Assembly: GCA_965645245.1 (NCBI GenBank)
Contig: OZ287078.1
Span: 186,001 to 250,000 of the forward strand
Origin: Massalongia carnosa
Lineage: Eukaryota
Reading direction: 5' to 3'
Length of the DNA stretch: 64,000 bases
Of the stretch, positions 421 through 60,423 are shown one piece after another. A program made the translations under genes and the position numbers. Below the pieces are notes generated by a model that worked only from the letters and a program-made list of their open reading frames with translations, made no database searches and was not told the origin of the DNA. Numbering within the stretch: the first letter of the stretch is position 1; each line of letters opens with the position of its first letter.

Positions 421-422
421 CC

Positions 423-9949: not shown

Positions 9950-10320
9950 CTCTGGGTAATGCCCACATCCCTTCCGCAAAGAATTTGGTGTTCGGAAACC
10001 TTGAGCCACTCACTCACGGCAACTTTATCGACGTCAAAAATGGTCGGCGCTCGCAGATGGGATGATGTTGGATGGTGATTATGCGGCTGCTCCCATAGCA
10101 GTTTAACACGGAGTCTCTGACGGAAGACAACAACCTTTCGGCCACCTCCTAGGCCCAAGGTAGTGCAACGATCCTCATCCCTATCGCTAACCCTAAATGC
10201 CTGAATTGCTGCAAGGTCGATGAATCTTGTGGGAACTTTGATTCGAATTAGCCTTCGTGGCACAGTATGGGGGGATGACCACAGGACATGCATCTTCACA
10301 GAAGGCATCATAGTTCGCTA
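9950..10320 (+). pseudogene. Remnant of a fungal PD-(D/E)XK-like protein
   Basis: IPSAKNLVFGNLEPLTHGNFIDVK motif followed by many stops. Confidence 0.3.
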
Positions 10321-28570: not shown

Positions 28571-28814
28571 CTATTTAAAATGACAAGAATGTCCCCTCGA
28601 TCGAAGATGAGAAGTTAGAAAATAGGTTGGTAACATCTGATTGAATGACTAAGCATTAGAATTAAAATTTTCTAATAATTTCGGGGCACTCATGCCTAAA
28701 CGGCATAACCTGAAAAATAAAACCCTGAAAACCTGAAATTTGAAAATCAACCGTGAAAACCCCTATTATTACATAGTCACATAGCCATAGTCATATACCT
28801 ATTTCAACAGCCCG

Positions 28815-32966: not shown

Positions 32967-35900
32967 CTAAGCACCGCCAAAGACCAAAAGGCTTTGAATA
33001 TTGATTCTGCCAAACCCACGCCGGCGCAACAGTTCCCGGCCTCGATGAACCGGGAACTCGGCCACGGCCATGATGCTGACATCCTCGGCGCCGATGCCAG
33101 CTTCATCTAATAGCTGTAGCACCGCACAAAGAGTTTCCCCCGTGGAAAGCACATCGTCCACTACCACCACTGATGCGCCCCTAGGGAGCACATCCCGTTC
33201 CATCTCGATCCGCTTCTCTTTCGAATCGTTGGATGCCAAAGACGAGATATGCGACGGGGGCTTGATAACGGAAACGGTGGGTGGGGGGAGTTTGCCGGCT
33301 TCGCGAATCAGCACCAAGGGCACATCGACCCGCGAGGCCAACGCCGACCCATAGACAAAGCCGCCGGCCTCGCAACACGCCACCGCATCGACTTTGGCCC
33401 AGTCACCGGTGAAGTGGGTTTGCAGCAGAGACGTGCACAGGGCCAGCCCACCCGGCTGCTGGGAGATGCCAAGCACGTGGCGAAACTCGATGTCCGGGCG
33501 TGGGAAGTCGGGTACCGGGCGCACCATATTAGCCAGTCGCTGCAGGTCCTCATGGAAGAAGAGAAGCAGATAATGTTCGGCAAACCTTTTCACCGCCTCG
33601 TTTCCTGTCGTGTCATTGTCGAAGATGAGACTGGGGCGGTAGTCCAAGGCCGTCAAATTCGACCTGCAATTGTTGCTGTCCTTGTTGTCGTCACCGTCGT
33701 CGTTACCGCCGTGGCACCCTCGGCGAACCCGCCGCGTCTGTTCACTAGCTTGGACGTGAACCTCGAGTAGCCTACTGTCTGGCACCAAATGCGATAAGGC
33801 TGCGATCGGCGCCTCGTCTCTCATTCCGGTGATTAGCAGCACGTCCACATCTACGGCGCCGTACACCACATTCAGAAAATGCTCCTCTGGCAGCTGAGGT
33901 CGTTGCCGCACCTGTCCCTGGAAAAATGTCGTCAACGCTGGCCGGTGTTGCTCCTTGTAGGCACGGTTCCAAAGCAGGCGGCTCAGGTCGGCACCGGTAG
34001 CCGCTGCGTATTCTCGCTTGATCGCATCGCTAATGCTGACTGCACGTGCCGTGAGGCTTTTGTGGGTGCATCTGATGAGCACGGGCACCCAGACGTCGGC
34101 ACAATAGTCTTTGCCGACGCAGCTTTCGCCCGTGACAAGAATGATAAGCTTCTGTTCCATCGGCGCTTTCGGAAGTGGGCAGGCGTAAGCCAGCACATTA
34201 CGCGGGTCCAAGCTGTGTTTGAGACGGGCCAATCGCGACCGGTTCGGTCCAAAAGCCTTGGCCGCTAGCGCGGCGTCTCTGGGGTCCGGTCCAAGGTCGG
34301 CGCCGTAAGCTCCGCTACTCAACGACAACAAGTCCCCGGCGACGTTGTAAACCCACCGCACGGCAGATCGTGCGGCTTCGGTGCCATCTTGGTCGCAGGG
34401 CCAGACACCGGTTATCACGCAGGCAAAGTCCCAGTCTCGACAGCCGAAAGCAGTGGCATCGGCCGCAACGTCGCCGACTGCTCCGCCACCTTGCAGCAGA
34501 TGGAGATAGCAGAGTAGCGAGGGACGAGTCTCAACGGCCGCCACCAAGCGGTCGGCGACGTTCGATTCTCCGATGCGATTTAAGAATAAACATCGCTTAA
34601 ACGAGGAGGTCTTGCCGCCGCCGTGCCCGCTGTGCATCCCGGACATGTACATCTCGGTCTCGAACAAACCGACGCCGTCCACGGCCTTGAAATCGTCTTC
34701 CGGCCCCCAAATTGCACCTACTGGCGTGGGCGTGGGTAATGCAAAGGTGAGCCTAGTCGTGGAATATTCGAACATGGTCACGCCAAGATGCAGCTGGCCG
34801 GCGTTCCAGTACAGATACGCGTCTGCAGAACAGTTCCGGGGGAGCTTCCTGGCGACGAGTTTATCAAAGTCGCCGAGCCTGAGCCGCGCCTCGAGGTTGT
34901 CATTCAGTGGGACAACCCAGTTTCGAGTCAAGTAGGTCGGAGCCGCGTAAGCCTTGAAAGTCACGCTGACTACGATGCCAAAGTTGGTCCCGGCGCCTTT
35001 CATCGCCCATAACAGATCGGGTTCGTTATCTGGGCGAACGGCACCGGCTGGCCAGTGTTGGCTTGGTACACGGCCGACGCAGAGGACCTGGCTAGAGTCG
35101 ACGCTAACCACAACGGCACCGACAATGGCGTCGCACGCGAGCCCGTGCAACCTAGCTAGGTGCCCGATGCCGCCTTGTAGCCACAGCCCTGCACCTACGC
35201 TTGGGCGAGCCCCCAGGGGGACTGTCACGCCCGCCGCCATAGCCTTGCGGACGATATCCCCCGTCTTGCAGCCGGCCTCGGCGACGACCAAGGAACCGGA
35301 ATTGGAACCGGAATCTCCTCCATCCTCCCCCGCCGTGAGAATTTTTACCTGGTCAAAGGCGCCCATGTCGACCGACACAACGTTGGGCCAGAGACAGTGG
35401 CCACTGTGACCCCCGCCGACGACGGTCAGGCCGACCCCGTGCTTCAGAGCCCATCGAACGCACTGCTGGACGTGTCGGACCTCTGTCGGCCGAATAATCG
35501 AGGCCGGGTGGTGGACGCGAGCCTCCCGGTTTTTAACCGTCTTATCCCCTTTCACCGATGGCACCTGCGCCGTCAGCTCCGGCAACGTGGTCGCATGTTG
35601 GGTAAAGGCCGCCATGACGTCGGGCGAGCTGAACAAGAGATGGTCTGGGTAGGCTCCCTCGCGACGGCACAAGGCGCGGCACATCTTACGCCACTCGACT
35701 CGGATAGCCTTGTCCACATCCACATCCTGCATGACAAACCCCGCGACGAAAGGAGCAAAACAGTCCAGTACCTCGTCGTCATTTGCCACGTGAACGACTC
35801 CGGTAGGGAAAGAAGCCGTTCGATGGCACACCAAGCCGTCGAGGTGCAGGGCCCCGTCGCGATGGAAAACCGCCACCATTCCGCCTTGTGGTTGCTCAAC

Positions 35901-36446
35901 AAGCATTTCCAGCGCCCGTTCGATGAATTTATGTTTGGGCTTCATGCCGTACATGCTATGGCAGAATAGGATGATGTCATATTTTTCGTCGTCATCACTC
36001 GTACCGGTACCGCTCCCTATGTTGTCCCCCAGAACGAATGGAATTCGATGGATGTCGGACGGGTTTTCCAGACAGGGCAGCGGGGACTCCATCTCGAAGG
36101 TAGAGCAAAGCCATTCTTCCAACCTTGTAGCAAACAAGCCGTTAGGCTCGAATGCAGTGTATCTCCTGACCTTCCGTCTCAGAAGGCCGGGAAGATATCC
36201 AAGTAGGCTCTTCGGGCCTGGTCCGATTTCTAGTGCCGAGATATGGATGCGCGAGTTGAAGAGAGGGGCGAGCAACTGAGATAGTTGGGGGATAATGAAG
36301 TCTTGGTACGTCATCCATCCTGAGCTCCGCATCAAGATATCGAAGCCGGCGCTGTACTGTGTGTCGGATAACGGCTGCTTCGGGGACGACGCCATTGCCG
36401 TGGCTTTCTGCCTAAGGGCCCGCTTTAGGGAGTCGAGGGTGGCCAT
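32967..36446 (-). CDS. Intronless four-domain enzyme (1159 aa): SAM-methyltransferase-like + FAD-linked oxidase + phosphomevalonate-kinase-like P-loop + adenine-PRTase-like
   Basis: LEIGPG / YDIILFCHSMY; VGGGHSGH, GLWLQGGIG, KGAGTNFGIV, DPRNVL; TGESCVGKDY, KEQHRP, ITGMRD; CEAGGF, REAGKLP, VVVVDDVLSTGETL; first plausible ATG at 36446. Confidence 0.85.
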   Translation of the reverse strand: MATLDSLKRALRQKATAMASSPKQPLSDTQYSAGFDILMRSSGWMTYQDFIIPQLSQLLAPLFNSRIHISALEIGPGPKSLLGYLPGLLRRKVRRYTAFEPNGLFATRLEEWLCSTFEMESPLPCLENPSDIHRIPFVLGDNIGSGTGTSDDDEKYDIILFCHSMYGMKPKHKFIERALEMLVEQPQGGMVAVFHRDGALHLDGLVCHRTASFPTGVVHVANDDEVLDCFAPFVAGFVMQDVDVDKAIRVEWRKMCRALCRREGAYPDHLLFSSPDVMAAFTQHATTLPELTAQVPSVKGDKTVKNREARVHHPASIIRPTEVRHVQQCVRWALKHGVGLTVVGGGHSGHCLWPNVVSVDMGAFDQVKILTAGEDGGDSGSNSGSLVVAEAGCKTGDIVRKAMAAGVTVPLGARPSVGAGLWLQGGIGHLARLHGLACDAIVGAVVVSVDSSQVLCVGRVPSQHWPAGAVRPDNEPDLLWAMKGAGTNFGIVVSVTFKAYAAPTYLTRNWVVPLNDNLEARLRLGDFDKLVARKLPRNCSADAYLYWNAGQLHLGVTMFEYSTTRLTFALPTPTPVGAIWGPEDDFKAVDGVGLFETEMYMSGMHSGHGGGKTSSFKRCLFLNRIGESNVADRLVAAVETRPSLLCYLHLLQGGGAVGDVAADATAFGCRDWDFACVITGVWPCDQDGTEAARSAVRWVYNVAGDLLSLSSGAYGADLGPDPRDAALAAKAFGPNRSRLARLKHSLDPRNVLAYACPLPKAPMEQKLIILVTGESCVGKDYCADVWVPVLIRCTHKSLTARAVSISDAIKREYAAATGADLSRLLWNRAYKEQHRPALTTFFQGQVRQRPQLPEEHFLNVVYGAVDVDVLLITGMRDEAPIAALSHLVPDSRLLEVHVQASEQTRRVRRGCHGGNDDGDDNKDSNNCRSNLTALDYRPSLIFDNDTTGNEAVKRFAEHYLLLFFHEDLQRLANMVRPVPDFPRPDIEFRHVLGISQQPGGLALCTSLLQTHFTGDWAKVDAVACCEAGGFVYGSALASRVDVPLVLIREAGKLPPPTVSVIKPPSHISSLASNDSKEKRIEMERDVLPRGASVVVVDDVLSTGETLCAVLQLLDEAGIGAEDVSIMAVAEFPVHRGRELLRRRGFGRINIQSLLVFGGA

Positions 36447-36749
36447 TTTAGTTCGGTATGAGTGGGAGTATCTCGCACTAGGGATGGCGAATATAACTGT
36501 TGTGACCGAGACTAGGTAACAATACACCAGCCCACAAGCAATGTGGATGCTGTAAAGAGCCAGGTCATCGTATAGAAGCGTTTAATAGAGCAGAGAGAAA
36601 ATAGATCCTTAATTTTAAACCGATCTTTGACTACAGGAGGCGTAGTAGCAGACTGAAGGCTTTGAAAGGTGATTATATTGATGCTATCTAGAAGGAAGGA
36701 AGTTCGAAGGGGTCCTTCCGAGGACCTTATTGACCTTATTGTTTGCTAT

Positions 36750-38916
36750 CCCTCTCGCTGTCATTCTAGCACCCCCCTCCCAAGCTAATCTATATTGGAC
36801 TAGCTTCCGCACCGATGAGTCATCAGAACATTAGTTTTCTCTAGAGTGTTTGCGCGTTTGTTTACTTTTCAAAGAATACTATTCGGTCATTCAATCAAAA
36901 TAAATCACATAAATTACTATTCTTCTAGCTTCGGAATTGATATTATAAGTATGACGCTCAATGAAGAAGAAATCCCGAGTGTATCAGACAAATCTCCCAT
37001 TTCAGCGAAGCAACATAAAATAAATCGCAAAAGAAGTGTTCGGGATATTTTAATCGACCTTCCCCCTATTTCCTCAAAATATACCCCCATTCGGGTTGAA
37101 AACAGGCCTTTTGTTCCGCTCGTTGAAAACGATTCTCGAAATCCTTTGGAATTATTTCAGTTATTTATAACAAGGCAGCATTGTCGTATCATCGCAAATC
37201 ATACCAATATCAAGGCAAATAACTACATGGAAAAGGAGAAGGAGAACAATCATCGGGTTTGGACTGACACTACTGACTCGGAAATTGAGGTTTTTTTGGG
37301 CATATTAATTCTTATGGGACTCGATCATCTACCTGCTACAGAGGATTATTGGAATCAACGTCCTGACAAACCAGTTATCATGCCTATTCTGTCCGCGATG
37401 TCGCTTGGTCGATTTCAACAAATCAAACGATTTTTGAAAATCAATAATGGACAGATTGAGCCTATCGGACTTGGTCAAGGACCTGATTGGTGGAAGAAAC
37501 TGGAACCGTTGGCTACTGATTTCCGAAAGACTTCATTGAAACATTGCAGACCAGGAAGTATGATATCTATAGATGAACAGCTGGTGTTATTCAAGGGCCG
37601 TTCTCGACATACCTTGCAGATTACTACAAAAAGTGCCCATAAAGGATTTAAAATCTACAGTCTCTGTCAGGATAATTATCTGTTGTCATTTATGTTTGCC
37701 TCGAAGAGTAGCAGAATAAGTGAATTGAAAACAGTCAGACAATTGGGATTTTTGCCAAAAGATAAACTAACTCCTAGTGCTTTGCTAGTGATTCAGTTAT
37801 GTAAAGAACTTCCATCCTCACTGAATTATCATCTTTTCTGTGATAATTTCTTTACTAGTACGAAATTATTCAAGGCACTTCGATCAATCGGAATAGCTGC
37901 CAGTGGAACTGCTAAAAAGGGCTCGGGCTTTCCAGAAGAATTGTTGGCCATACGGGACGTCACTTCAAAAGGAAAAGACTGGGGTCTTCAGGCCCATATG
38001 GTGGTCGACGATAAGGTGCTTTGTATGGGCTGGGTGGATAATAATGGTGTGCAGTACATGACCACCGGTCATTCTCCTCAGGACTTGTACGAAATGCACT
38101 ATATAAATCCGCACAAGAGATATGGAATTCCCGAGACCTCTCTTCAACCTATTGTATCGTATTTCCCATCAACTCTGGCTCACTCCATTCCCTTGCTCAA
38201 TCAAGAGGTTCAACGGCCCTTAGGATTACCGATACCAGCCCCAATCAAAGAATATAATCTTCATATGGGGGGATCGGATGGAAACGCTCAGCAACGAGCG
38301 ATTTACTCATACAATCGTCGAACGGATCGTTACTGGTGGCCTTTGTTCATTTTTATTTTAGATGCAGCCGGATTGAATGCCTATAAACTTTACTCGCTGA
38401 ACTCTTTCGATTCCGAGGAGATAAAATTTACTCGTTCTGAATTTCTTCGTCGGATTGCTCTTGAACTGATATCAAATCAAGCGGGCATCAGGCCCGGCTC
38501 ATCAAAGATAAGCATCAATACCACGATTGATGCTTTAGTACCATCTCCCATTCATCATTACGTTCGTCTTGAAGGCAGAAAAAGATGTGTGCAATGTAAC
38601 GCCGAGAAAAAACGACCTTCAAAGCGGAAGGGAGAGCCACTGGCTGAAATAAGTGTCGATGGGCGTAAAAGAAGGCGAAGGGGTGCTCAGACTATATGGG
38701 CTTGTGGAGGATGTAATCCAATCAGGCCCTGCTGTAAGAAAGCCAGCTGTTGGGAAGCTATTCATATGATAGGGGACGAGTAAATAGGTATCTGATACTC
38801 CGTACAACTTCTTGTGAATAGGAATAACATTGATTGGTCAAAATTTTAAGGTTTAGCGCTTTCTAACCAACAATGGTTTAGCTTGGGGGGGGGGTGCTAG
38901 AATGACAGCGAGAGGG
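36750..38916 (+). mobile_element. piggyBac-like DNA transposon, apparently intact
   Basis: ~39-bp TIRs ccctctcgctgtcattctagcacccccc..aagctaa; flanks CTAT and ATAG. Confidence 0.9.
36951..38783 (+). CDS. piggyBac-family transposase (610 aa)
   Basis: SIDEQL, FCDNFF, YNLHMGGSD catalytic Asp motifs; RYWWPLF; C-terminal Cys-rich domain; uninterrupted ORF. Confidence 0.9.
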   Translation: MTLNEEEIPSVSDKSPISAKQHKINRKRSVRDILIDLPPISSKYTPIRVENRPFVPLVENDSRNPLELFQLFITRQHCRIIANHTNIKANNYMEKEKENNHRVWTDTTDSEIEVFLGILILMGLDHLPATEDYWNQRPDKPVIMPILSAMSLGRFQQIKRFLKINNGQIEPIGLGQGPDWWKKLEPLATDFRKTSLKHCRPGSMISIDEQLVLFKGRSRHTLQITTKSAHKGFKIYSLCQDNYLLSFMFASKSSRISELKTVRQLGFLPKDKLTPSALLVIQLCKELPSSLNYHLFCDNFFTSTKLFKALRSIGIAASGTAKKGSGFPEELLAIRDVTSKGKDWGLQAHMVVDDKVLCMGWVDNNGVQYMTTGHSPQDLYEMHYINPHKRYGIPETSLQPIVSYFPSTLAHSIPLLNQEVQRPLGLPIPAPIKEYNLHMGGSDGNAQQRAIYSYNRRTDRYWWPLFIFILDAAGLNAYKLYSLNSFDSEEIKFTRSEFLRRIALELISNQAGIRPGSSKISINTTIDALVPSPIHHYVRLEGRKRCVQCNAEKKRPSKRKGEPLAEISVDGRKRRRRGAQTIWACGGCNPIRPCCKKASCWEAIHMIGDE

Positions 38917-41222: not shown

Positions 41223-41364
41223 TCGTATTCACCCCCATTTCGCAACACGCTAATTAGTAATTATCCAAGAGTAGATAGAAGAGTCGTATTCTCAATCTTC
41301 CAATACTATTTGAGTCGTTTACCGTAGTAAATTCTAGCGTGTTGCAAATAGGGGTGAATACGAG
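41223..41364. mobile_element. MITE (Tc1/mariner-type, TA flanks), copy 1
   Basis: TIRs tcgtattcacccccatttcgcaacacgcta / tagcgtgttgcaaataggggtgaatacgag, flanked by TA. Confidence 0.85.
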
Positions 41365-41706
41365 TACATCATTAGCATGCATTCACGGAGATAAACAAAC
41401 ACATAGAACGGTCTAGACTTGCGCCGTCTATCATTGACTCGGAGACGGATATGCATCTATTCTGGAATTTACTGTCACTTCAGGTCCTCTCTTATAATCG
41501 ATAAGACTTAAAAACAGGGATATATTGAAAACGCCGAATGCGTTGATGTAAAGGCGGGGCTTTCGCATAAAAAAATCCTAATCCGACTCAAATCCGTTGA
41601 ATGGAGTAACCCGACGACTTTAATTTAAACCGTTGCGTGGCTTAAATATAATTTGCGTTAATATCTCAAAATCACAATTTTCAGGACATATAACGTAACC
41701 ACATTA

Positions 41707-43197
41707 TCATGCAGTAGCTGTAGCTAGATCTTCTAAATCAAAGAGAATATGACGAATAACTGGTCCACGTCTCGTGGATGCGTGTCCATCATCAAGAATC
41801 CGCAGGCAGCGGAGTGCGATATCAACATATCGCACCCCCATTGTAATTTTCAAACCGTCCGTCATGCTTTCAAGATTACTTTTGCGCTCAGGGGCTGAGA
41901 CATGTTCAAATAGATGGTTGTACGTGTGAAGTGGCTTCCAACGTCCGATCTCAACGAGAATGACACCAAGAGCATAGATATCGTGCTCAGGAACAAACTC
42001 TGCAGCTGCCTGCCCCTCGGAGTCTACGGGCGTACGGTCAGGGTGTTGGTATAATTGTCTGCGCCATCCGCCGCCCAATGCCTCATCACCAGTTGACCTT
42101 CCAGTTTCTCTGCGAGTGTAGTCAAATCCAGCTAGGAAGGCTGTACCCAAATTCTGAGGATACTTGAAGGTCGAGGACTGCCGGTTCGCCATCCAGATGT
42201 TCGAGGCTTGGATGCCTTTGTGGACCCATCCAATTGAATGGATGAAGAGTATGGCTGAGGCAATTTGTCGGGCGAGCTCGAATCGCTGATCGAGTGAATG
42301 CTTCAAGATACGATTTCCGCGATCATCAATCAAATTCAAGAGTTGGGACAGTTGCACCGGGGCATTAAACCGGGCAGGTAGCTCATATACGATACCAAAG
42401 GGAACCGTTGGCTCGGCTTGCGAGACAAAATACTTGATTGCGCGCATTGAGAACATCTTCGCGGCGTCGATGGCTGACAGGACCGAAACCAACTTCACGA
42501 TCTCTTGCTCAGCCTCGTGCCTCATCCTCTCATTACTGGCATCGCTTGCAGGCAGTCTCTTCCATTCCACGAGATATGTCTTCGAGCTCATTGCCGTCAG
42601 TTGCCCTCCTGACCAGGGTTCAAAGTCGTTGCCAAACCCGTTTTGAAGCCGCAATTCCTCAGTCAATTCTTCGCTTTCTGAATCGCCCAGCTTCTGAAAC
42701 TTTAGAATTGTTTCCTCCATTCGTTGATGAGCCATGGCCGTTCCCACCAACGATGAGGATTCTCCCACATACGTCAGGAGCCGGCCCTTAGTAGGATTTG
42801 GAAATAGAACAAGGCATTTCTGCAATCTATCGACCCACTCATATATCGCATGCTCGGCAGAGTTTAGATCTTCTCCAACGGCAATCCACTTCGTTTTATC
42901 CCATTTACCGCTCGATTTGTACTTCAGCAGCCGCGTCTGAGTCGACTGTAGGATTGGTAAAAGGTACGAAAAGACCCGTTGCAAGTGATTCACACTCTCA
43001 GCATCTAGGTTTTCAAGTACATCCTCCGTTAAGAACTTGTTCAGACAACCAAGAAGCGTGGTGTCGTTCTCAAAGCGCAAGAGAACCGCGGGGATTTCTG
43101 CTCTAGCGTCATGATATCGCTTGCAGAAGGAGACGATATCTTTTGCAAACCCCCACGAGGCTGAGATGGCCCCCAGAACAGCGAAACTAGAGACCAT
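41707..43197 (-). CDS. HeLo-like helical N-terminal domain + pseudokinase (MLKL-like architecture), 496 aa, intronless
   Basis: Hydrophobic first helix MVSSFAVLGAISASWGFAKDIVSF, helical bundle ending KTKW; kinase-like C-lobe RFELARQIA, WVHKGIQASNI, FLAGFDYTR, YQHPDR, HDIYALGVILVEIG. Confidence 0.8.
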   Translation of the reverse strand: MVSSFAVLGAISASWGFAKDIVSFCKRYHDARAEIPAVLLRFENDTTLLGCLNKFLTEDVLENLDAESVNHLQRVFSYLLPILQSTQTRLLKYKSSGKWDKTKWIAVGEDLNSAEHAIYEWVDRLQKCLVLFPNPTKGRLLTYVGESSSLVGTAMAHQRMEETILKFQKLGDSESEELTEELRLQNGFGNDFEPWSGGQLTAMSSKTYLVEWKRLPASDASNERMRHEAEQEIVKLVSVLSAIDAAKMFSMRAIKYFVSQAEPTVPFGIVYELPARFNAPVQLSQLLNLIDDRGNRILKHSLDQRFELARQIASAILFIHSIGWVHKGIQASNIWMANRQSSTFKYPQNLGTAFLAGFDYTRRETGRSTGDEALGGGWRRQLYQHPDRTPVDSEGQAAAEFVPEHDIYALGVILVEIGRWKPLHTYNHLFEHVSAPERKSNLESMTDGLKITMGVRYVDIALRCLRILDDGHASTRRGPVIRHILFDLEDLATATA

Positions 43198-43365
43198 CGT
43201 TCTGGTGAGGCACGCGTCGACTTCACAAATCACAACCGTAAGGCTAGCTTAAGTTCTATGATCCAATCCACATGTCACGTGTTGCTAGAGTGGAGGGAAG
43301 GTCATGGGACGAACGGTGCATATCTCAAACGGGGAGAATGACGTCGACGCGATGGGGGAACACTA

Positions 43366-43498
43366 CTCGTATTCACCCCCATTTGCAACACGCTAGAATT
43401 TACTACGGCAAACGACTCAAATAATATTTGAAGATTGGGAATACGACTCTTCGAATCTACTCTCGGGTAGTTAATTACTAATTAGCGTGTTACAAATG
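43366..43498. mobile_element. MITE copy 2, inverted relative to copy 1, one TIR truncated
   Basis: Internal sequence is the reverse complement of 41248-41340 with substitutions. Confidence 0.85.
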
Positions 43499-43839
43499 CA
43501 TGTTACGACGCGTGGCATGTAAGTCGTCAGGCAACAGCGCCAGGCAGCATTTCCACACCTACTTCTCATATTCGAAGATATTTCAAGCAATGCTCGAATC
43601 GTCTTTGCATCATCTATTCGTTTCATTTGATTCACATGATCCGCTAGGTTACTGAATGTGATGTGATGCCCGGTTCCGTCCCACGAACGAGAAGACCTTC
43701 GCTCGTTTCAGTGCTCTTCCGCTTGGCTGTTGGTGTTCTTGCATGTTCTGCATGCAGTGGCATAGCGAGCAAGTTTGCGACATACTGCAAATAACCCTCT
43801 CTTCTCAAGCCTTGTTTCGCGTGTAAATGTATATTCAGA

Positions 43840-46800
43840 ATGGCCGATGATTCCTTGCTTGATGATTTGAGCAGCGCGGTAGATGAAGGGTTGAAGAATC
43901 CTGCTCTCCGCTGGAATGCCGGCCTTCCAATAGCCTTGCCGTACGTGACAACTGTTGGTGTCATTCGTCGATCAAAGCATCTCCTCAACAGTGCGAAGGA
44001 TTCCATTGCCGACGATACGACAAAACATCTCGACTACGAAAGCTTCGTGCGATTCCTGGCCGACACACCCGTACCGACTGTACCGAAATTCGATAGAGAG
44101 CCAGTTTCCCTGGGCAGTGGCTGGACCATGAGCGTTTACCGAGGGCGAGCGAATCTGCATGATTCGTCACGTCTTGTTGCAGTCAAGTAAATGCTCTTTC
44201 GGTACTTGATGACGTTCCGACTAACAATGAAAGGGAGTTAAATATCGATCTGGCGCTTGGCATGTCGTCTGAAGAAGAACGAAATTCTGACTTCAGGGCA
44301 AAGCTGACCTCTGTCATCTTGGGTACGAACGCAGATGATGTCCCATCCGTCAAAGCTATTGATAATCTTTGCAGAGATCCGTCTGATGTCGCACGAGCTC
44401 CTCCGAAGCCATAACAACATTGTTCGTCTGCTAGGTATCAGTTGGACGTCTCGCAAGCTTAAGACCGGGGATGAGCCCTTACAGATCCCTGTTCTTTTGG
44501 TTGAACTGGCCTCATCGTTAAATGGACAACCTTTGACGCTCGAACTACTGATACAGTTGTCCATGGACGAGCCATTGAGCGTACAGACGAAGACGAAATT
44601 GTTGTCAGACGTTGCTACTGGTCTTACGGCCTTGCATGCACTTGGAGTTGTCCATGGTGATGTGAAGCCTTCAAACATGCTCATATTCGAAGATGAATTG
44701 GGCATGACTGCAAAGATATCGGACTTTGGATTTTGCCTTACGGGCGATCACGATTTGCAAGCTGCACGAGGTGGGACGCCCCTCTGGAATGCACCTGAGT
44801 GCTTGAAAAATGCTCCAGAAAGGTTACGAGCTCACAGATACGAGGTTACTAGGGATTATTACTCCTTTGGGCTATTGATATGGTAAGCTCAGTGTGCATG
44901 GCGAGAACTCGAAGTCTGAACTGCATCTTAGGTTTGTTCTTTTCGAAGGTATTCCTTTGATGGATCACCAAAATAACCTGGACTGTTTAAAATTGAAACC
45001 AAGTTTAAAAGATGAGATTGATGAGATTTTCGCTAAGCGCTACAGATTAAATGTTGATGTTTCTAGTAGCAAGAAGACTTCCTTTCAAGAGGAATTCAAC
45101 GTGCGCACTGGTAACTGGCAAGCCTCCGTGACGAACGAACAGCACATTCTACGCTTTCTCATGCAATGGTTACTAGTCGCCGCTCCTCAAGCAAGGCAGC
45201 ACGCACTTGACCTGTACGGACCGTTACTTCGGGATCGGTGTGTACCTATGCTTCTCCAATCTTCTCTTGAATTGTCATTGATATTGCATAGGTCTTGTTT
45301 GGAACTTGCGAAGCAGGCATTTGAATCATCTGGAACTTGGGATGATCAGTGGTCGAAATTTGGGCAGCCGGCGATACGGTTTTCCGTTAGAGTGGCATCA
45401 GAACACTGCGAGTAAGTAACGGAAGCCGGAAATTGACAATTGAAAGTTCATGGGTACAGAAATTCACGACGGACACTTTACTCTCTAGATACCTCCATGG
45501 AAATTAACGAGTGGGGACGGTTACGCCAATTTGAAAAATCATCAACAGGCCAGAAGGTGCACCAAATCTTTGCTCAAGGCGGACGTTAAGCTTACAATAA
45601 TGACAGATTGAGCAATTCGCTGCGAAAAACGTTCCGATTCAACTGCAGCGACAAATTTTTCAGAACTCTCTCCAACATGCTGCCAGCTCAGAGGAAGAAA
45701 ATCCATTGAGCCACCAGAAGATGGTTGGAGACTGTTACAGCATAGGCTTTGGCGTCGAGCGTAACATCTCCCATGCTCTTTCCTGGTACGAGAAGGCAGC
45801 ACAGGCCGGAAGCGTGGAAGCGGCCGAGGCTTTCCTCCGTGTAGCAGGGCCAGAGTTAGCCTTTGAGCATCTTGGGGCACTCGTCTACTGTCAATGGCTT
45901 TGTCGTGCCCTTCTCTCTGCCTTTGATCAAGAAATGGATGAATCCATGGGGAGACCAAGATATTCAAGGCAAATTTTGCGTCTTCAACACCTACTATGTA
46001 CGAACCCGGAACTTGCTCGTGTTGCACTGGAGCAAGCTTTCGAAAATTTCATCGTGATGAAGGATCTTACGCTCCGCCAGATTTCTAACGATACCACAGC
46101 CGGAATTGAAGCAAGCGCGGAGTGGGTGGAAGCGGTGAACGCGATACGGAGAGACGATCAGGAGGCACTTCGGCAGGCCATCTCTACATTGCCTTCAATT
46201 CTCCAAGGTCATCCAGAGTCTCGAACACTTGCGTACGTGGCTGCAGAAAGCGGTCGTGCTGGCCTCTTGCGGATGCTAATAGAAGAGTATGGCGTGGATT
46301 GTCAGCTCCCAAACAGTGACGGAGTTACTCCACTAGCATGTGCTACTCGCCTTGGTAATACCGCCGCCGTGAGAGTGCTCTTATTCTTTAACAAGAACGC
46401 TATGTTAGAGCGCGACATCACAGCAATGGACACCGGTGCAGAAGGTGATAGCGGTAAGACTCGTTATAAAGCTAGTCCCAGTACCATTCAGGAAGACTGA
46501 CCGTGTGACAGATTTGACGAAACTTCTCTTCGAGAAATTTGTTGGGCCAAAATCGTCAAACAGCAAGCCTAATGCGATCCTTGGTCCTTTTGGCCGTTGG
46601 TCATTGTTCTCACTGGCGTCAGCAATTCTCAACAATAATTGGACCGTTCTCTGCACACTTCTTGCTATAGGTGCTCATCCAGATACCATATCGTTACCTG
46701 AGATCTCAGGAGCAGAAACTTTTTTCGCTGCCACACTATTAGCAAGCACGTCGTACAACCCAATCATGCTGGCTGCACTGTTGGCTTTTGGTGCGTCCGT

Positions 46801-48322
46801 AAGTATGCGGGTGCCATCCCCCGATAATCGTACGGCACTTCATCTTGCCTGTGGAAAATACTTCAATACTAAATCTGGCTGGGAGGCGATTGAAGACAGG
46901 CCAGAATTCACCCAGCACTGGACCTTGAACCGCACTAATGTACCGCAAGGCACCCTTAAGCATCTGCAAAAATTCACAATTTGGATTCTGCTGAACTGCG
47001 ATGCTAGTGTGGAGTCACCAGACAACAATGGTTTGACACCTTTGGCGTATTCGCTCCAGAACAGCGCTGATTTAACTGCGGCTATGTATCTTCTTGAACA
47101 AAGAAGCCCCGCTGATATCGACGCTCCTGATTTTTCCGGCAATACACCTCTACACCGAGCTCTAGAGAACAATGACTTGGAACGCTTGGAGTTCGTCCTC
47201 AGACATAGAGCTAACGTTGACGCGCAAAACTTCATGGGAGAGACTCCGCTCTGCAAGGCGGTAAAGCATCGCGACGTTGCCATGTGCAAGCGGCTCTTGC
47301 GCGCCGGTGCAAACATTCGGGCCACCGATGCCAATGGCCAAAACTGTCTTCACCTTGCTTTGTGGCACTCTAAAATGGACATTCTTCAGCTCTTTGAGGG
47401 AGTTTTATTGGCTCATTCTCAAGGTGCGTATGAACAGACTCTGCGTGACCGTGACTGCCGGGGCTGGTCATCGCTACACACTTGTATCTTAAAGAGTGGC
47501 ACAGATCCTGCGTTTGTTTCTTTGTTCGAGAGATGGATCACCTCCATTAGAGACCTTGATTTGGATGCTCAGGATGGATTGGGTTGGACAATGCTCCATG
47601 TGGCGAGCTCATACAGCTATGATTGTGCATGTATTCTTCTAAAACAGGGGGCATCCGTGGATGTGAAGGACACTATTCTTGGATGGACTCCCCTGCATTA
47701 TGCCTGTAGTGAAGGAAATCAAGAGGTGTGGAACCTCCTTCTAGCTTATCAAGCCGACTTCTACCTCCGAGACGATTTGATGGGATGGACGCCAATGAAG
47801 ATTCTGGAGCAGGCGATGGACTATTTGCGCCTTGAGTCTGGAGAAACATGGGTTGACGAGGAAGGAAAACCGGCTGAGGATGAAGATGAGGAGTGGCAAG
47901 ATGAAGCCAACGAAAGTGAGGGGAAACAACATGAAACACAACCTCTCGACCCTGTTTCAAGAGAAGCACTTGCCAGGAGAAGAGCGAACTTGCGTTCTCG
48001 TGTCACTCATTTCTTCACCGAAGAGTCAATGCGAAGGATCATGCAACCTGTCAGACAAGCTGACATTGATCATGAGATCGATCTCGCACGCGCAAGCGCA
48101 TTCCCTGAGCATCGCTATCTGGAGGTGGCCTCTTCGGAGGTCGACGAGACACTCCGAATCTGGAACTCGAGGAATTTGCAGCGAGTCTGTTTTGTAGATC
48201 GTCAAGCGAAAGTTAGGCGAAGAGGCCCCATGTCCCCGGCAACTTTTAGCTCACTGCAGGCTTACAGAGTTTGGTTCATCGACATAGATGGTATTATTCA
48301 TGGTTTATCTGGTATGGAATAA
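43840..48322 (+). CDS. Protein kinase + Sel1-like repeat + ankyrin-repeat protein, multi-exon
   Basis: LGSG, VAVK, alphaC Glu (VILEIRLM), HGDVKPSN, SDFG, GTPLWNAPE; GDCYSIGFGVERNISHALSWYEKAA; many ankyrin motifs; in-frame introns 44187-44233, 44323-44374, 44883-44931, 45238-45291, 45412-45459 (uncertain), 45557-45606, 46454-46511. Confidence 0.85.
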
Positions 48323-50592: not shown

Positions 50593-51912
50593 CAGTGGGT
50601 ATGATTAAGTGTTCGTCATTTTGCGTAATTTTCGCGAAAAATCGCGTCTCCCCCAAACTCATCCTTTTCAACCCACCATCACCATGCCCAAACGAAGCCC
50701 ATTGACCCCCATCTCTGCTAATAAGACCCCTCGAAGGGAGTTATCTACGTTTACAAAAGGTCAAATATCAGGCCTCGCCCGGGCGGGTTTAACACCCACT
50801 GAAATTCATCATCAATTGAACGTCTCCCGCACCACCATTCAGAGCTTTTTGCAGAGAGAACAAACAATTCCGTCTAGAGAAAACAGACCCCGATGCGGCC
50901 GGCCCCCTGTTGTTACCCCTCGAGCGGTCAGATCCGTGCTGCGGTATGTTCGAATCAACCCAAAAACAAGTTGGAATCAGGTCAAAACAGCCTTGGGGTT
51001 GAAGATCTGCAGGCAGACGTTCAACAAGGTGCTCAAGAATAATGGGATAGCTCATTGGATGGCCTTGAGGCGGCCTAAATTGACCCCAGCTCTGGCAAAA
51101 CTCCGACTGAATTAGGCACAAAAACACGAGGACTGGATGGTGGAACAGTGGAAAACTGTGATCTGGTCAGATGAGTCTTCTGTGCGAAGGGGTTCGGGCA
51201 AAGGCCGTGACTGGTCTTTGGAACTCCTGATCAGAAATGGGATCGTGATAAGCTTCAGGAAGGTCCCAAAGGCAAGGCCTTTAGTATAATGATATGGGGG
51301 GCATTTTGGGGATCGGGAAGGTCGGATCTTCATCTTTTGGAGCGGGATTGCGAGTTTAAAAAGCAAGGTTTTGGAGTCCAACTTGCTAGGAATATGGACG
51401 CCCGGTCTTGTTTTCATGCAGGATAATGGCCCTATTCATGGAGCGAATAAAACAAAGGCGTGGTTTAAGGAATTGGGGATAGAGGTAATGGACTGGCCAC
51501 CCTACAGCCTCGACTTAAATCCTATCGAAAATCTTTGGGCCCTTCTCAAGAAAGAGGCCTACAAAGTTTATCCCGACATCAATTCTCTAGAGGGCAAGGG
51601 CGACGAGGCAGAATCCAAGCTGTTTAGCATTCTGCAGGAGGCATGGGGGAACATTCGTGAGGAGGTAATAGATGGACTGATTGCAAGCATGCCCCTCAGG
51701 GTGGCAGCACTTATTGCTGCGGAGGGGTGGCATACAAAGTATCAGCACCACCAAATTCGGGTAGCAAATAGAGCACATATCAATCGATTATTAATGCAAT
51801 TTTGGAGGTTTCAAACGGTTGTTTGGGGGGTAGGGAATAGGTGGAACAAATGTGCTGTAAAAGGGAATTTTGGTTTTGGTGGGGTGTGCCGAAGACTTTT
51901 TCACAGCTAGTG
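50593..51912 (+). mobile_element. Tc1/mariner element with imperfect TIRs; transposase from 50684 is frameshifted and deleted
   Basis: TA flanks; HTH region with RPRCGRPP; VIWSDE, FMQDNG, WPPYSLDLNPIENLW. Confidence 0.85.
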
Positions 51913-54452: not shown

Positions 54453-55179
54453 GAACTTGCTACCATCTATAAAATAATTACCATCTAGTCATCTTGCCAT
54501 TCATGTCTAAAACGTCATCTATTCTTTTAGGCATTGATTCGATCCATTCATTGATCGTTTCCTGAGAAAGACTGACCCAACCCGCCTTAATTGCAGCTAT
54601 TGTGGTGTCATAATCCCAATGAGGTTGACGACCTACCCGTTGTTTGGGCACCTGCCACCAATTTTCGATAGGAGAAAGATCAGGAGAACGAGGGCAGTTG
54701 AAGTAGTATTTTAGCCCATGCTCGTCCTTCCCCGATCCATGTCCTGAATCGCCATCTTCTTCCAACACGAAATTCGGGTCTGTTTCGAGCCATGTTTTTA
54801 CTACCGGTTCCAGAATGAAGTCAATATACACCTTCTGACTCATCTTTCCATTCGAATTGCTGGGAACCTCATAAAAAATCAGCTTTGATTTGAAGTTCCA
54901 CCCCACAGCAGCCCAACAATGATATCGTTTCTGTTTTTTGTCCTTCTCTTCAGGCTCATGTTGTTCCTGAATGCAATCCTGACACGTACGCTCGCCAGGT
55001 TTTCGAATGATGCGTAGTCTTCGTTGAGGTCCTCGTCCGAAATGAACTTCATCGGAAAAGCGAACTCTTTTCCAATCATTCAAAGAGTATGTGTTTCGTT
55101 TGTTCCAAGCCCAATCCTTTCGTGCAATCATCAAATCTTTCCGGACGTAGGTTTTTGTGCATGCGAGACATTTACGATA

Positions 55180-58100
55180 TTTTCGTTCCTCCGCAGGACA
55201 ATGAGTTATTTTCGTCTTGGGAGGAGGCAAAGACTATTCTTCAAAACTATGCCTTCACCCAAGGCTTCGCGTTGGTCACAGAAACTCACGATAAGAAAAA
55301 CCATTTAATCGTATTAGACTGCACACGCCACCACAAAAGAGCTAGAAACACTAGAAAAGTAGAGGGGGAAGACCGGGTGCGAGCCAATACCAAAGTTTCG
55401 TTCAATGAGTGCCCTTATCGCCTCCGTCTCAAAAAAAACAAAGACAATGCATGGAGACTAATAGTCACTTACTCCGAGCACAATCTTGAGATGGCCACTG
55501 ATCCCTTTGCATTCAGAGAACATCATAGTAGGGACCCTGATCGAATAGATGCCCTAGATCAAGGGAAGAGTCTCCGTGCATCGTCAACCCAATATGGCCA
55601 AGCAGCGAGAATATTAGGAATCCAAGGACTCCGTCTGTCGAGGAGCGATTATTATAATCTCGCTCATTCGGAGGGAGCTCACACGCCTGAAGAAGAGCTT
55701 CTTTTTGCCTTGGGCTCGTTGAAAGACAGGGGCTTTCATGTACGGTGTAAGGAAAAATATATTGTTAAGAATAATGTGCGTGAGAGACGGGTGATAGAAC
55801 AATTTTTTTTTTGCAATGCAGACCAAATTAGGCTGGCTCGACGTTTCGTGGGTGGGTTTTTATTAGAAACGGATGCAACGTTCAATACTAAATAAATTGA
55901 ACTTGCCTTTATCCGTTTTTGTTGGAATCACTAACACCGACCTTTCGTTTCCCGTCGCTTATTGCTATATAACTTCCGAATCGGCCGAATGTTTCTCTTT
56001 TATTTTCGAATGTATGAAAGAGTTGATTTTTCATGATGATTGCCCCGGGCCTGGGGTGATTCTCGGGGATTTTGCAGCTGGGTTGACTGTGGCCATGCAA
56101 AGAAAAGCTAAAGCTCCGGCAATTGATCTCGATGCTGCATTGACCATTGCAAGAGAGGTCGCCGAAAATCTAAACCAATCAACGATGAAAGCGGGCGAGG
56201 AGAGATGCGATTTGCAGCTGTGCACGTGGCATGCGGCCGAGGCAATATAAAAACGACTGATCAAGGCAGGGAAATATCCCCAAGAAGTGCGCAAAAAGCT
56301 GGAGACTCTGATTTGGGATTATATAAAATCCCTCACTATTGATGAGTTGAATGAGAGACGAAGAAAGTTGCTGAATGAACTTCATCCCGTAGAAAAGGTT
56401 AGTAGTGATATATCAAATTAAATTTCAAGCGAGTTAGGGCTACTGCTAACGCTACCTCTTTCGCAGGATTATCTCATGAATTTCTATCAACGTCAAGAAA
56501 TTCAGTTCGTGCATGCATATACTACTAAACTCCCTAATTTAGGCGCACACAGCACACAGCGTTCAGAAGGTCTACATTCATTGGTTAAAAATGTGACCAA
56601 TAGAAATACTCCTATAAGACAATCGGTGCAGAAAATATGTGATGAGGTGCGGAAAAAACAATTAGATCAGGAGATTTTGTGCAATCAACAGCGAATACGC
56701 AATCCTAGATTGATCGATAGAAATGCTTTTACGCTACTCATTGGGAAAATTACGCATCATGCCATTGGCCTCGTTTCAAGAGAACTCGATGCCGCCAAAT
56801 CATTAGCTGAAGGAATCCTTTCTATTGTCCCTGATGGTGGAAGCTGTGTTTATGATTGTGAGTTGCCTTTAAGGTACGGTCTCCCATGCAAATGCTGGTT
56901 GTATAAATGCATCATCGACTCGGTCCCTATTCCCGTTTCCCTCATCCACCCCCGCTGGTTTTTTTGATGGCCCACCTTATGCGGTCTCTTGGCAAATGAC
57001 CTTCGATTTCGTTCGCGGCTCGGAGCCCGAGGTCGAAAAGATCGTCGATGAGGTCGAAGGGACGGGAGAGATTGAGGCGGATAAGGATGAGGTCGAGCTC
57101 GAAGAAGGCGTGTTGAGTGTGGATATATTTCGCCGCGGGGGGCTTGATTTGCTACCTTCTGTGGCATATCAATCTATTGACCTGCATCAATCAATAGAAG
57201 ATTCTCATCGAAGGGAGGAGTACGCTCGCGAGCTCACATCGTTGAAAAGTTCAATAAGAAATGGCAAAAGAAGGAGCTGGTAAGACCTCTCATCCCCACC
57301 ACATTCCCCGACGAAATTCGGCCCAAAGAAAACCTCATGTATAAGAAAGGAGGGAGTCGTCGACGTGCCTACACTGGTCGCGAGGCAGCTGAGGCTAGAG
57401 AAACTGAACAGCGACGTACTAGGCGAAGGGACTCTATTGAACAAGGGAGGAGGCTTAGATATAATAGATTGCGTGCTGGGGGCGACGATGAGGTTGAAGG
57501 TGAAACAGAAGGTAAAATTCACGATGTTGCAAAGTTATTGCGCTCAGGTCGGCTAATATTGGGTACAATAGGTTTAGGAGAAAACTTAGTTATTGAGAGA
57601 ATCGAAAACGCGTCTATCGTCTCCGACGACGATGACGAGGTGCAGTATATAAGCACTCAGCCCATTCTCGTTCATTCTATGGATCCTATGCTTCCTTCGG
57701 ATGACGATAATGATGTTATTCTTACATCAGAAGCCTCGTCAGATTCGCTCGAAGATATTGACGATGTGCTTGCCAAGCATAGTCAAAAAGCTCTACCTCA
57801 GGCAGCGCCGCCTCCATCTCTTTATAGACTTAGCCAAAACGTGCGCGCCAGTCAAATCTCCCTACTTCCTCTGCAACAACGCGAAGGTCTCGGGGTGTGG
57901 CGAAGAAATCAAAGGCTCAGTTGGAGTTGGAATCTCAGCAAAGAGTCGAGAAATCAGTCAAACAGGCTAGGGCTCAAGCGAGAAAGGAAACGGCGATGAG
58001 AAAGGTGGCTAAAACCATGAAGCCTAGAAAAGATCATGTATCGCAATTGGCTGACGAGTTTTAATAGGTAGATTTGTAGATGTTGAATACACTTAGTCAG

Positions 58101-60240: not shown

Positions 60241-60423
60241 TAGTTCGTGTCAATCTCGTTATATTGCTACTAAGTATGTTTGGGCTATTGCTCACAGCCC
60301 CCGGCCTCGAGAGGGGGACTCGATAAGGGCCTTGCTGTCTACTAATGTAAGACCCTCTCGCAGGCCTTGGGCTGTGAACAGACTCCCAATCCCCAACATG
60401 GAACGACCCGCTTGCGGTGTTGT

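Follow-up and report, generated by a model that had tools for sequence, protein, structure and literature searches.

In a 64-kb window of Massalongia carnosa DNA (the whole 64,000-nucleotide stretch analysed here, positions 186,001 to 250,000 of contig OZ287078.1 in assembly GCA_965645245.1), a gene for a kinase-like protein without catalytic motifs lies head to head with a gene for a canonical kinase carrying Sel1 and ankyrin repeats. The question raised by this locus is whether the two proteins work together as an executioner and its regulator, and the conserved linkage of their genes suggests a possible kinase-controlled death or immunity switch. The sequence-only reading had described two apparently intact genes diverging from about 640 bp. 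This description holds, with gene 1 being a single open reading frame, gene 2 being intact after removal of its introns, and 642 bp (43198-43839) separating the start codons of the divergent pair. The features of gene 1 are as follows, in window coordinates.

41707..43197, minus strand: gene 1, one exon, uninterrupted open reading frame of 496 amino acids plus stop, encoding a predicted HeLo-like four-helix bundle, brace helices and a pseudokinase
43126..43197, minus strand: first helix, hydrophobic and rich in small residues, residues 1-24 (hydropathy and model)
42808..43197, minus strand: four-helix bundle, residues 1-130, distant relative of PF17111 (HeLo-like) by model, profiles and fold comparison
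42652..42792, minus strand: brace-like helices linking the bundle and the kinase fold, residues 136-182 (model)
41710..42615, minus strand: pseudokinase domain with a TKL-like kinase fold, residues about 195-496
42214..42222, minus strand: HKG replacing HRD, residues 326-328
42121..42129, minus strand: GFD replacing DFG, residues 357-359
42088..42099, minus strand: activation-loop RSTG, residues 367-370, inferred candidate phospho-acceptor

The start codon of gene 1 agrees with that of its homologues. The AlphaFold2 model of the protein (pLDDT 83.4, pTM 0.87) contains four long helices (residues 3-31, 34-55, 66-94 and 101-130), followed by helices 136-144, 149-170 and 175-182 and then by the kinase fold; the bundle modelled alone gave a pLDDT of 83.7. 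Among the 478 windows of 18 residues, residues 1-18 rank first in hydrophobicity, with a Kyte-Doolittle mean of 1.47. Both the hydrophobic first helix and the helical bundle that had been read from the letters are therefore present in the predicted protein.

With residues 1-200 as query, Pfam returned no family at a threshold as loose as E ≤ 10, and the bundle profile retrieved nothing meaningful from the sequences of solved structures (best E 0.91). However, a search of 1.84 billion proteins with this profile identified 64 representatives at E ≤ 0.001. In a Pfam scan of 61 of them, a kinase-like C-terminal domain was found in 24, and three passed the cut-off for PF17111, a family named PigL_N in the Pfam library and called HeLo-like in PMC9815663. 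These were P0067 (bundle-profile E 5.7e-6, PF17111 41.0 bits), P0083 (E 5.8e-4, 32.0 bits) and P0085 (E 6.1e-4, 33.6 bits). The gene 1 relative P0022 reaches just 13.6 bits with PF17111 (cut-off 27.2), and in P0024 a Pfam HeLo domain (43.5 bits) is joined to the same WVHK-type kinase-like domain. Comparison of the bundle with the small PF17111-passing proteins by hhalign, a set chosen among the bundle profile's own matches, gave 99.1% probability (E 1.1e-18) over 127 columns. A language-model look-up also indicated HeLo clusters (0.92).

Structural comparison of the bundle model with 48161 chains revealed similarity to the plant domains Rx-CC (Z 11.5), MLA13 CC (9.4), NRG1 CC-R (8.9) and AtMLKL3 (7.5), to mouse MLKL (4btf, Z 8.8, rmsd 2.5 Å over 100 residues), to the human MLKL N-terminal domain (Z 8.7) and to HET-S (Z 8.0), although Z scores of 8-11.5 for a helical bundle are within reach of unrelated helical models. 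Foldseek with the bundle alone returned zero matches at E ≤ 0.001, the best being IncA (0.032). As judged by profile comparison, the gene 1 bundle has a remote yet significant relationship to PF17111, the HeLo-like domain of fungi, and the predicted fold, which resembles MLKL, HET-S and plant CC domains, agrees with the HeLo or MLKL-type bundle expected from the first inspection.

The second half of the protein is a kinase fold from which both catalytic aspartates have disappeared. The replacements of HRD by HKG and of DFG by GFD, already noticed in the translation, are typical of the family, since all 16 gene 1 relatives retain the HKx and GF[DE] motifs. H326 and K327 do not vary among the 16 aligned sequences, none of which has Asp at the third place; G357 and F358, as well as T369 and G370 of the activation loop, are likewise identical in all 16. 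In a wider set, the HRD aspartate is lost in 32 of 35 relatives. By sequence, the pseudokinase matched GCN2 and LIMK1 best (E about 8e-4), ahead of MLKL (0.021), and the best fold matches of the whole model (Foldseek, VIA-align) were IRAK4, BRAF and IRAK1, with MLKL not among the best 50 listed. In these comparisons, the gene 1 pseudokinase appears no closer to that of MLKL than to other TKL-type kinases.

Several gene 1 relatives belong to, or border on, the Pfam family DUF7580 (PF24476; cut-off 27 bits). Six of the seven relatives scanned matched it at E ≤ 0.1 and two passed the cut-off (P0022, 35.6 bits; P0023, 28.3 bits), whereas the window protein gave no match at E ≤ 0.01, and it is therefore regarded as a sub-threshold DUF7580 relative. 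A full-text search found no publication on a fungal pseudokinase family around DUF7580, for which the present gene pair offers a functional lead.

Gene 2 (43840-48322, plus strand) is split into several open reading frames by introns only. Removing six GT-AG introns, each 47-58 nt long, restores one continuous reading frame, giving a predicted protein of about 1392 amino acids with the following exons.

43840..44186, plus strand: exon 1, N-terminal region, glycine-rich loop and beginning of VAVK
44234..44322, plus strand: exon 2 (tblastx conservation 61% in locus L001 and 77% in locus L003)
44375..44882, plus strand: exon 3, kinase core with HGD (44653-44661), DFG (44722-44730) and APE (44791-44799)
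44932..45411, plus strand: exon 4, end of the kinase domain and family-specific helical region
45460..45556, plus strand: exon 5
45607..46453, plus strand: exon 6, Sel1 repeat (about 45733-45813) and first ankyrin repeats
46512..48322, plus strand: exon 7, six Ank_2 stretches of ankyrin repeats, then an acidic C-terminal tail and the stop codon

An initial intron model with a non-GT donor was replaced by this seven-exon model, which is supported by homologues, and exon 4 may contain a further in-frame intron (45214-45291). Two annotated proteins, of 1336 and 1375 amino acids, align with the predicted protein over the full length (44.0% and 40.6% identity, respectively). Exon 3 alone matches the Pkinase family (PF00069) with 64.6 bits (cut-off 31.7), and the Sel1 and Ank_2 scores are 33.7 bits (cut-off 30.7) and 143.7 bits, respectively. 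VAVK, HGD, DFG and APE are all found, as the initial description of a canonical kinase with Sel1 and many ankyrin repeats had stated, and across 12 gene 2 relatives HGD, K, N, DFG and PE show little or no variation. An NCBIfam search produced generic kinase and ankyrin likenesses only, far under the cut-offs. Among solved structures, the kinase core is nearest in sequence to CaMKK, DCLK and PAK, with matches also to IKK, IRAK4 and BRAF. RIPK is absent from the best 60 of the 907 matches, and within this set the gene 2 kinase appears to have no particular likeness to RIPK3. On inspection, no RHIM-like motif came to notice.

From the observed domain make-up of the two proteins, the dead motifs of one and the live motifs of the other, their conservation and the linkage of the genes, we infer a mechanism in which the repeats act as sensor, the kinase binds and phosphorylates its partner, and cell death follows from membrane attack. 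In the resting state, the gene 1 bundle with its hydrophobic first helix would target membranes but be restrained through the brace helices by the catalytically dead kinase domain. Gene 2 would encode an active Ser/Thr kinase, with the Sel1 and ankyrin repeats serving as protein-binding surfaces for a trigger or a guarded target. Once the repeats are engaged, this kinase would act on the gene 1 pseudokinase, most simply by phosphorylating S368/T369 of the activation loop, and the bundle thereby freed could oligomerise and permeabilise membranes, with an immune-type response or a regulated death of the cell as the result. We give about even chances to the reading that the two genes are a conserved module in which gene 1 is a membrane-attacking executioner of MLKL layout and gene 2 is the cognate kinase regulator that activates it by phosphorylation. 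That the pair constitutes a fungal necroptosis-like axis, with a repeat-bearing sensor kinase phosphorylating a HeLo-pseudokinase executioner and with the divergent arrangement predating the split of Lecanoromycetes and Eurotiomycetes, is a tentative proposal.

A different use of the same pathway would leave gene 1 unphosphorylated. Here the active kinase would use the pseudokinase as its scaffold or allosteric partner in a kinase-pseudokinase heterodimer, and the bundle would place this complex at a membrane or oligomerise it, with an outcome in signalling and not in death. Pseudokinases often act as allosteric partners and hubs (PMC13519141), and any physical partnership would fit the conserved linkage. 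Nevertheless, this explanation seems rather unlikely in view of the first helix being the top hydrophobic stretch of the protein, the kinship of the bundle to HeLo-like domains, whose studied members target membranes (PMC12881547), and the invariance of T369 in the activation loop.

Phosphorylation of an executioner by its partner kinase invites comparison with animal necroptosis. Gene 1 has the bundle, brace helices and pseudokinase in the same order as animal MLKL and has likewise lost the HRD and DFG aspartates. Human MLKL carries HGK and GFE at these positions. The presence of a separate active kinase as presumed regulator is a further likeness to the MLKL/RIPK3 system. In contrast, there is no detectable orthology between gene 1 and MLKL, and the gene 2 kinase bears Sel1 and ankyrin repeats. 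The genes for MLKL and RIPK3 are not known to be neighbours, unlike gene 1 and gene 2. The interpretation offered by the sequence-only reading, in which an ankyrin kinase phosphorylates an adjacent MLKL-like executioner, is partly supported. It withstands both of its computable refuting conditions, through the HeLo-like four-helix bundle and the linkage in eight further lineages, but specific resemblances were not seen, with no RIPK among the best 60 of 907 matches of the gene 2 kinase and with MLKL behind other kinases among the sequence matches of the pseudokinase. If the tentative necroptosis-like axis is true, the pair would be the first example outside animals of a cognate kinase and executioner of the RIPK3-MLKL type.

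In plants, MLKL proteins (AtMLKL1-3 and wheat Pm13) combine a HeLo-type bundle with a kinase-like domain and have a role in immunity (bioRxiv 10.1101/681015; PMC10951266). The gene 1 bundle aligns with that of AtMLKL3 (Z 7.5), but the plant proteins belong to another kingdom and no sequence relation to gene 1 was detected. To our knowledge, plant MLKLs have no neighbouring cognate kinase, and their activating kinase is still missing. Gene 2 is a candidate activating kinase of this sort.

Among fungal systems, the link of HeLo and HELL domains to MLKL and their clustering with NLRs have already been published (PMC12881547; PMC9815663). Gene 1 resembles HET-S and HELLP in its bundle distantly related to PF17111, its hydrophobic first helix and the position of the executioner gene next to a gene for a repeat-bearing regulator. 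It differs from them in having a pseudokinase in place of the C-terminal amyloid motif and a kinase-ankyrin protein instead of an NLR as neighbour, and the window protein is under the Pfam thresholds for PF17111 and HeLo. Any signal to gene 1 would accordingly pass through phosphorylation or binding and not through amyloid templating. Fungal gasdermin genes adjoin those of activating proteases, many of which also carry WD40, TPR or ankyrin repeats (PMC12881547). There too a pore-forming executioner is encoded beside its activating enzyme, but activation is proteolytic, whereas here the neighbour is a protein kinase and the putative executioner has a four-helix bundle. With both the het-S/nwd2 and the gasdermin/protease pairs, the present locus shares the arrangement of executioner and repeat-bearing regulator as conserved neighbours, in this case in eight further lineages. 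So far, fungal death proteins are known to be switched on by NLRs through amyloid templating or by proteases through cleavage. Kinase activation of gene 1, if true, would add a third switch for fungal pore-forming death proteins.

A 2025 review mentions that a HELL domain is in some cases combined with a kinase or pseudokinase domain in one protein (PMC12881547), which is the architecture of gene 1; its passage on these fungal proteins gives no partner gene, linkage or experiment. The earlier claim that no such clustered pair had been characterised has to be trimmed on this account, because the architecture itself was already in that review, but a clustered kinase partner of a HeLo-pseudokinase was not found described in print in our full-text literature search. 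The gene pair is a new variant among fungal executioner-plus-activator pairs, the added element being the conserved kinase-Sel1-ankyrin neighbour. The same review leaves the likeness of fungal HeLo-type death to animal necroptosis to future work (PMC12881547), and the pair provides a concrete two-protein system for asking whether phosphorylation controls a four-helix-bundle executioner outside animals.

The partnership of gene 1 and gene 2 could also have the opposite sign, with the kinase restraining the executioner by inhibitory phosphorylation or binding and its loss or disturbance releasing it, as in a guard or addiction-type pair. A toxin inherited with its keeper would show such tight and ancient co-inheritance, and divergent transcription from one interval would couple the dose of both genes. 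No observation on the pair separates restraint from activation. The known neighbours of fungal executioners, such as NLRs and proteases, are activators (PMC12881547), and we consider a restraining kinase improbable.

The pair is also kept in distantly related lichen formers. Homologues of the two genes are co-located on one contig in eight further lineages, with gene 1 identity down to 32%, and the linked pairs include fungi of two classes, Lecanoromycetes and Eurotiomycetes. The identities to the window proteins (gene 1/gene 2, in %) fall together: 85/91, 64/73, 50/60, 50/57, 49/60, 46/53, 46/52 and 32/47. For six of the eight pairs, the shared contig was deduced from equal contig sizes or consecutive accessions. 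In Trapelia coarctata, both homologues are on one 79684-bp contig under consecutive accessions, and in five more pairs the contigs of the two homologues are equal in size to the base (7489, 10757, 7143, 9013 and 6080), the 6080-bp contig carrying a gene 1 relative just 32% identical. The count excludes 15 of 23 gene 1 homologue clusters, whose neighbourhood was not judgeable.

Orientation was checked in metagenome loci, and both of those with enough upstream DNA, from seven fetched, have the genes head to head: L001 (gene 1 identity 49%, gap 338 bp) and L003 (64%, 616 bp). Three others (L002, L004 and L005) were left out of the pair count with upstream DNA that was too short. L006 matches the kinase part only (30% identity) and lies outside the family, the bundle being missing (hhalign probability 0.3%); it was not counted as a pair because the upstream gene is an ordinary kinase gene without a tblastn match to gene 2. 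L007, with 26% identity, is also outside the gene 1 family. The two genes are the sole content common to the 21.5-kb L001 locus and the 64-kb window, and in L001 they are flanked by unrelated ordinary genes. By gene order and protein comparison, gene 1 and gene 2 appear as a real, conserved two-gene module, and the conserved linkage, whose absence would have counted against the earlier interpretation, is seen at the level of a shared contig in eight further lineages and of head-to-head order in the two checkable contigs.

The interval between the genes has two features.

43198..43839, no strand: divergent intergenic interval of 642 bp, presumed shared promoter region
43364..43497, no strand: MITE-like short dispersed repeat within the interval

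The inverted arms of the repeat are at 43365-43395 and 43483-43513, and comparison of the homologous intervals of the window, L001 and L003 revealed no conserved block. It is quite unlikely that the adjacency is without functional meaning, left by shared ancestry or a bidirectional promoter between genes that work independently: a shared promoter alone might hold two genes together, all linked cases are from related ascomycetes with two classes named, the orientation is confirmed in two contigs only and the intergenic DNA is not conserved, but the adjacency persists at 32-50% protein identity while the rest of the 21.5-kb L001 locus is unlike the window, and the pairing of a dead with a live kinase is a non-random combination.

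The surroundings of the pair in the window had been called mostly broken, which is a fair description, with remnants of copia, piggyBac-like, Tc1/mariner-like and LINE elements all round; yet the same 64 kb also contain one apparently whole NLR-type gene (Patatin-NB-ARC-TPR). An NLR-type gene among many transposon remnants is typical of fungal immune-type loci.

The linkage of gene 1, which encodes a HeLo-like bundle, brace helices and a pseudokinase, to its divergent neighbour gene 2 (kinase-Sel1-ankyrin) is the main new result. Their start codons are separated by 642 bp, and the two genes are arranged as follows:

41707-43197, minus strand: gene 1, a single uninterrupted reading frame of 496 aa
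43840-44186, 44234-44322, 44375-44882 and 44932-45411, plus strand: gene 2, exons 1-4 of the spliced model
45460-45556, 45607-46453 and 46512-48322, plus strand: gene 2, exons 5-7 of the spliced model

The initiator methionine of gene 1 occupies the same position as in its homologues, with which the protein aligns end to end without breaks, indicating a whole single-exon gene. Gene 2 appears fragmented in a plain ORF list only because of its introns. The predicted seven-exon model has six introns of 47-58 nt, all with GT-AG borders, and yields a frame of 1392 aa with one stop, at the terminus. Thus, the two intact diverging genes described in the sequence-only reading were recovered, gene 2 reading through once these introns are removed. 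Its product aligns over the full length with the 1336-aa protein ‘Ankyrin-2’ from Trapelia coarctata (identical at 44.0% of 1303 aligned positions) and with a 1375-aa protein from Endocarpon pusillum (40.6% of 1306 positions), and the small exon 2 is kept in two metagenome loci. An 18-residue stretch around 45214-45291 is missing from the relatives and could be an additional in-frame intron.

The intergenic interval also contains a MITE-like repeat (43364-43497), roughly 130 bp long and bounded by inverted ends. It has a second copy of 90% identity, oppositely oriented, at 41244-41366, located 340 bp past the gene 1 stop on its 3' side. Across this repeat, contig depth exceeds the flanking level 10-40-fold, so copies are scattered over the genome, and assemblies are interrupted at them.

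Scanning metagenome contigs revealed seven loci. In only two of them (L001 and L003) is there enough sequence on the upstream side of the gene 1 homologue, and in each a head-to-head gene 2 homologue is present. In L001, gene 1 shows 49% identity and is separated by 338 bp from gene 2, which is matched over residues 1-1338, while L003 has 64% identity, a gap of 616 bp and a gene 2 homologue continuing to the contig end. The resemblance of L001 (21.5 kb) to the 64-kb window is limited to these two genes, and GH76 and an MFS transporter are among the ordinary genes on its flanks; therefore, the pair stayed together while its surroundings differ. Six further linked cases came from database look-ups. 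The Trapelia coarctata (Lecanoromycetes) homologues have consecutive accessions on one 79684-bp contig. For five protein-cluster pairs, both homologues originate from contigs of equal size (7489, 10757, 7143, 9013 and 6080 bp), and each pair was accordingly taken as one shared contig. The 9013-bp pair falls in the 90% cluster of a protein from Endocarpon pusillum (Eurotiomycetes), and the 6080-bp pair shows only 32% identity for the gene 1 relative and 47% for the kinase core. Over all pairs, identity to the window drops in parallel for both genes, as expected for joint inheritance. Linkage was judged in 8 of 23 gene 1 homologue clusters, the remaining 15 not being counted as counter-examples. 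Conserved linkage to a kinase-repeat gene is thus borne out by eight cases, with head-to-head orientation in L001 and L003.

At another metagenome locus, L006, a distant kinase-like protein (5402-7387, minus strand), 30% identical to the kinase portion of gene 1, diverges from an ordinary protein kinase gene (8942-10636, plus strand) and is surrounded by housekeeping genes. It carries no HeLo-like bundle; the divergent arrangement is probably a coincidence, and the locus was excluded from the count.

The AlphaFold2 model of gene 1, based on a 16-sequence alignment, is confident (pLDDT 83.4, pTM 0.87) and contains long helices at residues 3-31, 34-55, 66-94 and 101-130, followed by three shorter ones within 136-182 and by a kinase fold. 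Hydrophobicity along the protein peaks in residues 1-18, which fits a HeLo-like kinship; this peak and the modelled helices agree with the hydrophobic first helix and helical bundle noticed earlier. Residues 1-200 matched no Pfam family even at E ≤ 10, and residues 1-175 folded on their own (pLDDT 83.7) produced no Foldseek match at E ≤ 0.001. An exhaustive structural aligner run against 48161 chains matched the bundle to the plant CC folds of potato Rx (Z 11.5) and barley MLA13 (Z 9.4), Arabidopsis NRG1.1 CC-R (Z 8.9), mouse MLKL (Z 8.8, rmsd 2.5 Å, 100 residues), the N-terminal domains of human MLKL (Z 8.7) and HET-S (Z 8.0), and AtMLKL3 (Z 7.5), in a range (Z under about 13) commonplace for helical bundles and with unrelated helical proteins reaching equal scores. 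By fold alone, kinship to cell-death bundles is suggestive only.

Sequence comparisons give firmer evidence than the fold for a HeLo-like kinship. A bundle profile search of 1.84 billion representatives identified 64 proteins at E ≤ 0.001, of which 61 were covered by a Pfam scan. A kinase-like C-terminal part is present in 24 of these, and 29 have no Pfam family. Three small proteins (P0067, P0083 and P0085) exceed the gathering score of PF17111, named as the HeLo-like domain in PMC9815663; one (P0080) has a sub-cut-off PF17111 match, one weakly matches HeLo, and three show only low-complexity or sub-threshold likeness to unrelated families. Profile-profile comparison of the bundle with the three small proteins, targets preselected from the profile's own matches, gave 99.1% probability (E 1.1e-18, 127 columns). 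A language-model look-up pointed to HeLo clusters (0.92), and the distant relative P0024 has a true Pfam HeLo domain joined to a gene-1-like WVHK-type kinase-like domain. We conclude that the gene 1 N-terminal domain belongs to the HeLo/HeLo-like superfamily as a divergent member that itself stays under Pfam thresholds.

The C-terminal half of gene 1 has only weak kinase matches in Pfam (PK_Tyr_Ser-Thr, 20.4 bits, under cut-off). A database search at E ≤ 0.001 returned 24 proteins, the query among them, and 16 full-length proteins were aligned. All 16 have H-K-x without aspartate at the HRD site and G-F-D or G-F-E at the DFG site, so the loss of catalytic residues is an old, maintained state rather than decay, and the kinase fold without catalytic motifs seen in the window extends to the relatives. 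The β3 lysine K213, N333 (at least 90%) and the activation-loop T369/G370 are conserved, with T369 invariant. Among 35 proteins of a broader set, all with both the gene 1 N-terminal domain and a kinase-like domain, the HRD aspartate is missing in 32, and the DFG position is occupied by aspartate in P0074 alone. The top Foldseek match of the whole model was IRAK4 (E 2.6e-7), and an independent fold search gave BRAF, CRAF, IRAK1, TAK1 and RIPK3 at Z 18.6-20.4, with MLKL absent among the matches listed; the modelled kinase fold is TKL-type. P0042, an 802-aa bundle-profile match, combines a gene-1-type bundle with a kinase passing Pfam Pkinase at 76.3 bits (catalytic loop HHDLKPSN). Thus, the bundle-kinase fusion exists in live-kinase and dead-kinase versions.

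Gene 2 proved to be the canonical kinase with Sel1 and ankyrin repeats that had been proposed. All catalytic motifs of its kinase core are present and kept in 12 relatives, and Pfam detected Pkinase, one Sel1 repeat barely over cut-off, and ankyrin repeats, with one Ank_2 stretch encoded by exon 6 and six by exon 7. By sequence, the kinase appears generic. Its top solved-structure matches are CaMKK, DCLK, PAK, IKK-beta and IRAK4, with no RIP kinase among the best 60 of 907.

Gene 1 has the same part order as MLKL. The relatives of its bundle that have been studied act by attacking membranes, according to section 18 of the review PMC12881547, which also calls for a broader study of fungal HeLo/4HB proteins. 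The review further mentions that certain fungal HELL domains are fused to a kinase or a pseudokinase. Based on this layout, the membrane-attacking relatives, the dead but conserved kinase with its invariant threonine, and the live-kinase neighbour, the simplest reading is that gene 2 would be a sensor kinase carrying protein-binding repeats, which would phosphorylate gene 1 and switch the executioner on. Such switching would parallel RIPK3/MLKL, and the gene arrangement parallels the habit of encoding fungal executioners beside their activators. From the necroptosis-like module suggested previously, the conserved pair, its architecture and its linkage stand, whereas we infer binding, sensing, phosphorylation and death. 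An allosteric partnership of the two proteins without phosphorylation seems unlikely, a role of the gene 2 kinase as an inhibitory keeper of gene 1 is more doubtful still, and synteny without meaning is about as improbable as the latter. The pair is a conserved module, a variation on the fungal executioner-activator theme, and merits experiment. In the main text of openly accessible articles, we found no description of a kinase gene clustered with HELL-(pseudo)kinase proteins and no paper on DUF7580.

The gene pair is located in a repeat-rich compartment with the following features:

13129-16448, plus strand: Patatin-NB-ARC-TPR gene, three adjoining ORFs with many TPR repeats, about 25 kb from the pair
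21777-23054, 28777-29604, 36819-38783, 51293-51910, 54478-55233, 59486-60430 and 61950-63056: transposon remnants of several kinds

The remnants include copia gag and reverse transcriptase, DDE_3 and DDE_1 transposases, a LINE-type reverse transcriptase, and a piggyBac-like DDE_Tnp_1_7 transposase (654-aa open frame). The domain architecture at 13129-16448 is that of fungal NLR-type receptors whose effector domain is a phospholipase. At the left window end (402-1367, plus strand) there is an additional ankyrin-repeat open frame. A 1204-aa open frame at 32970-36581 (minus strand) contains FAD_binding_4, phosphomevalonate kinase and phosphoribosyltransferase domains, an unusual fusion with a foreign-looking composition (60% G+C versus 43-51% in the remaining window).
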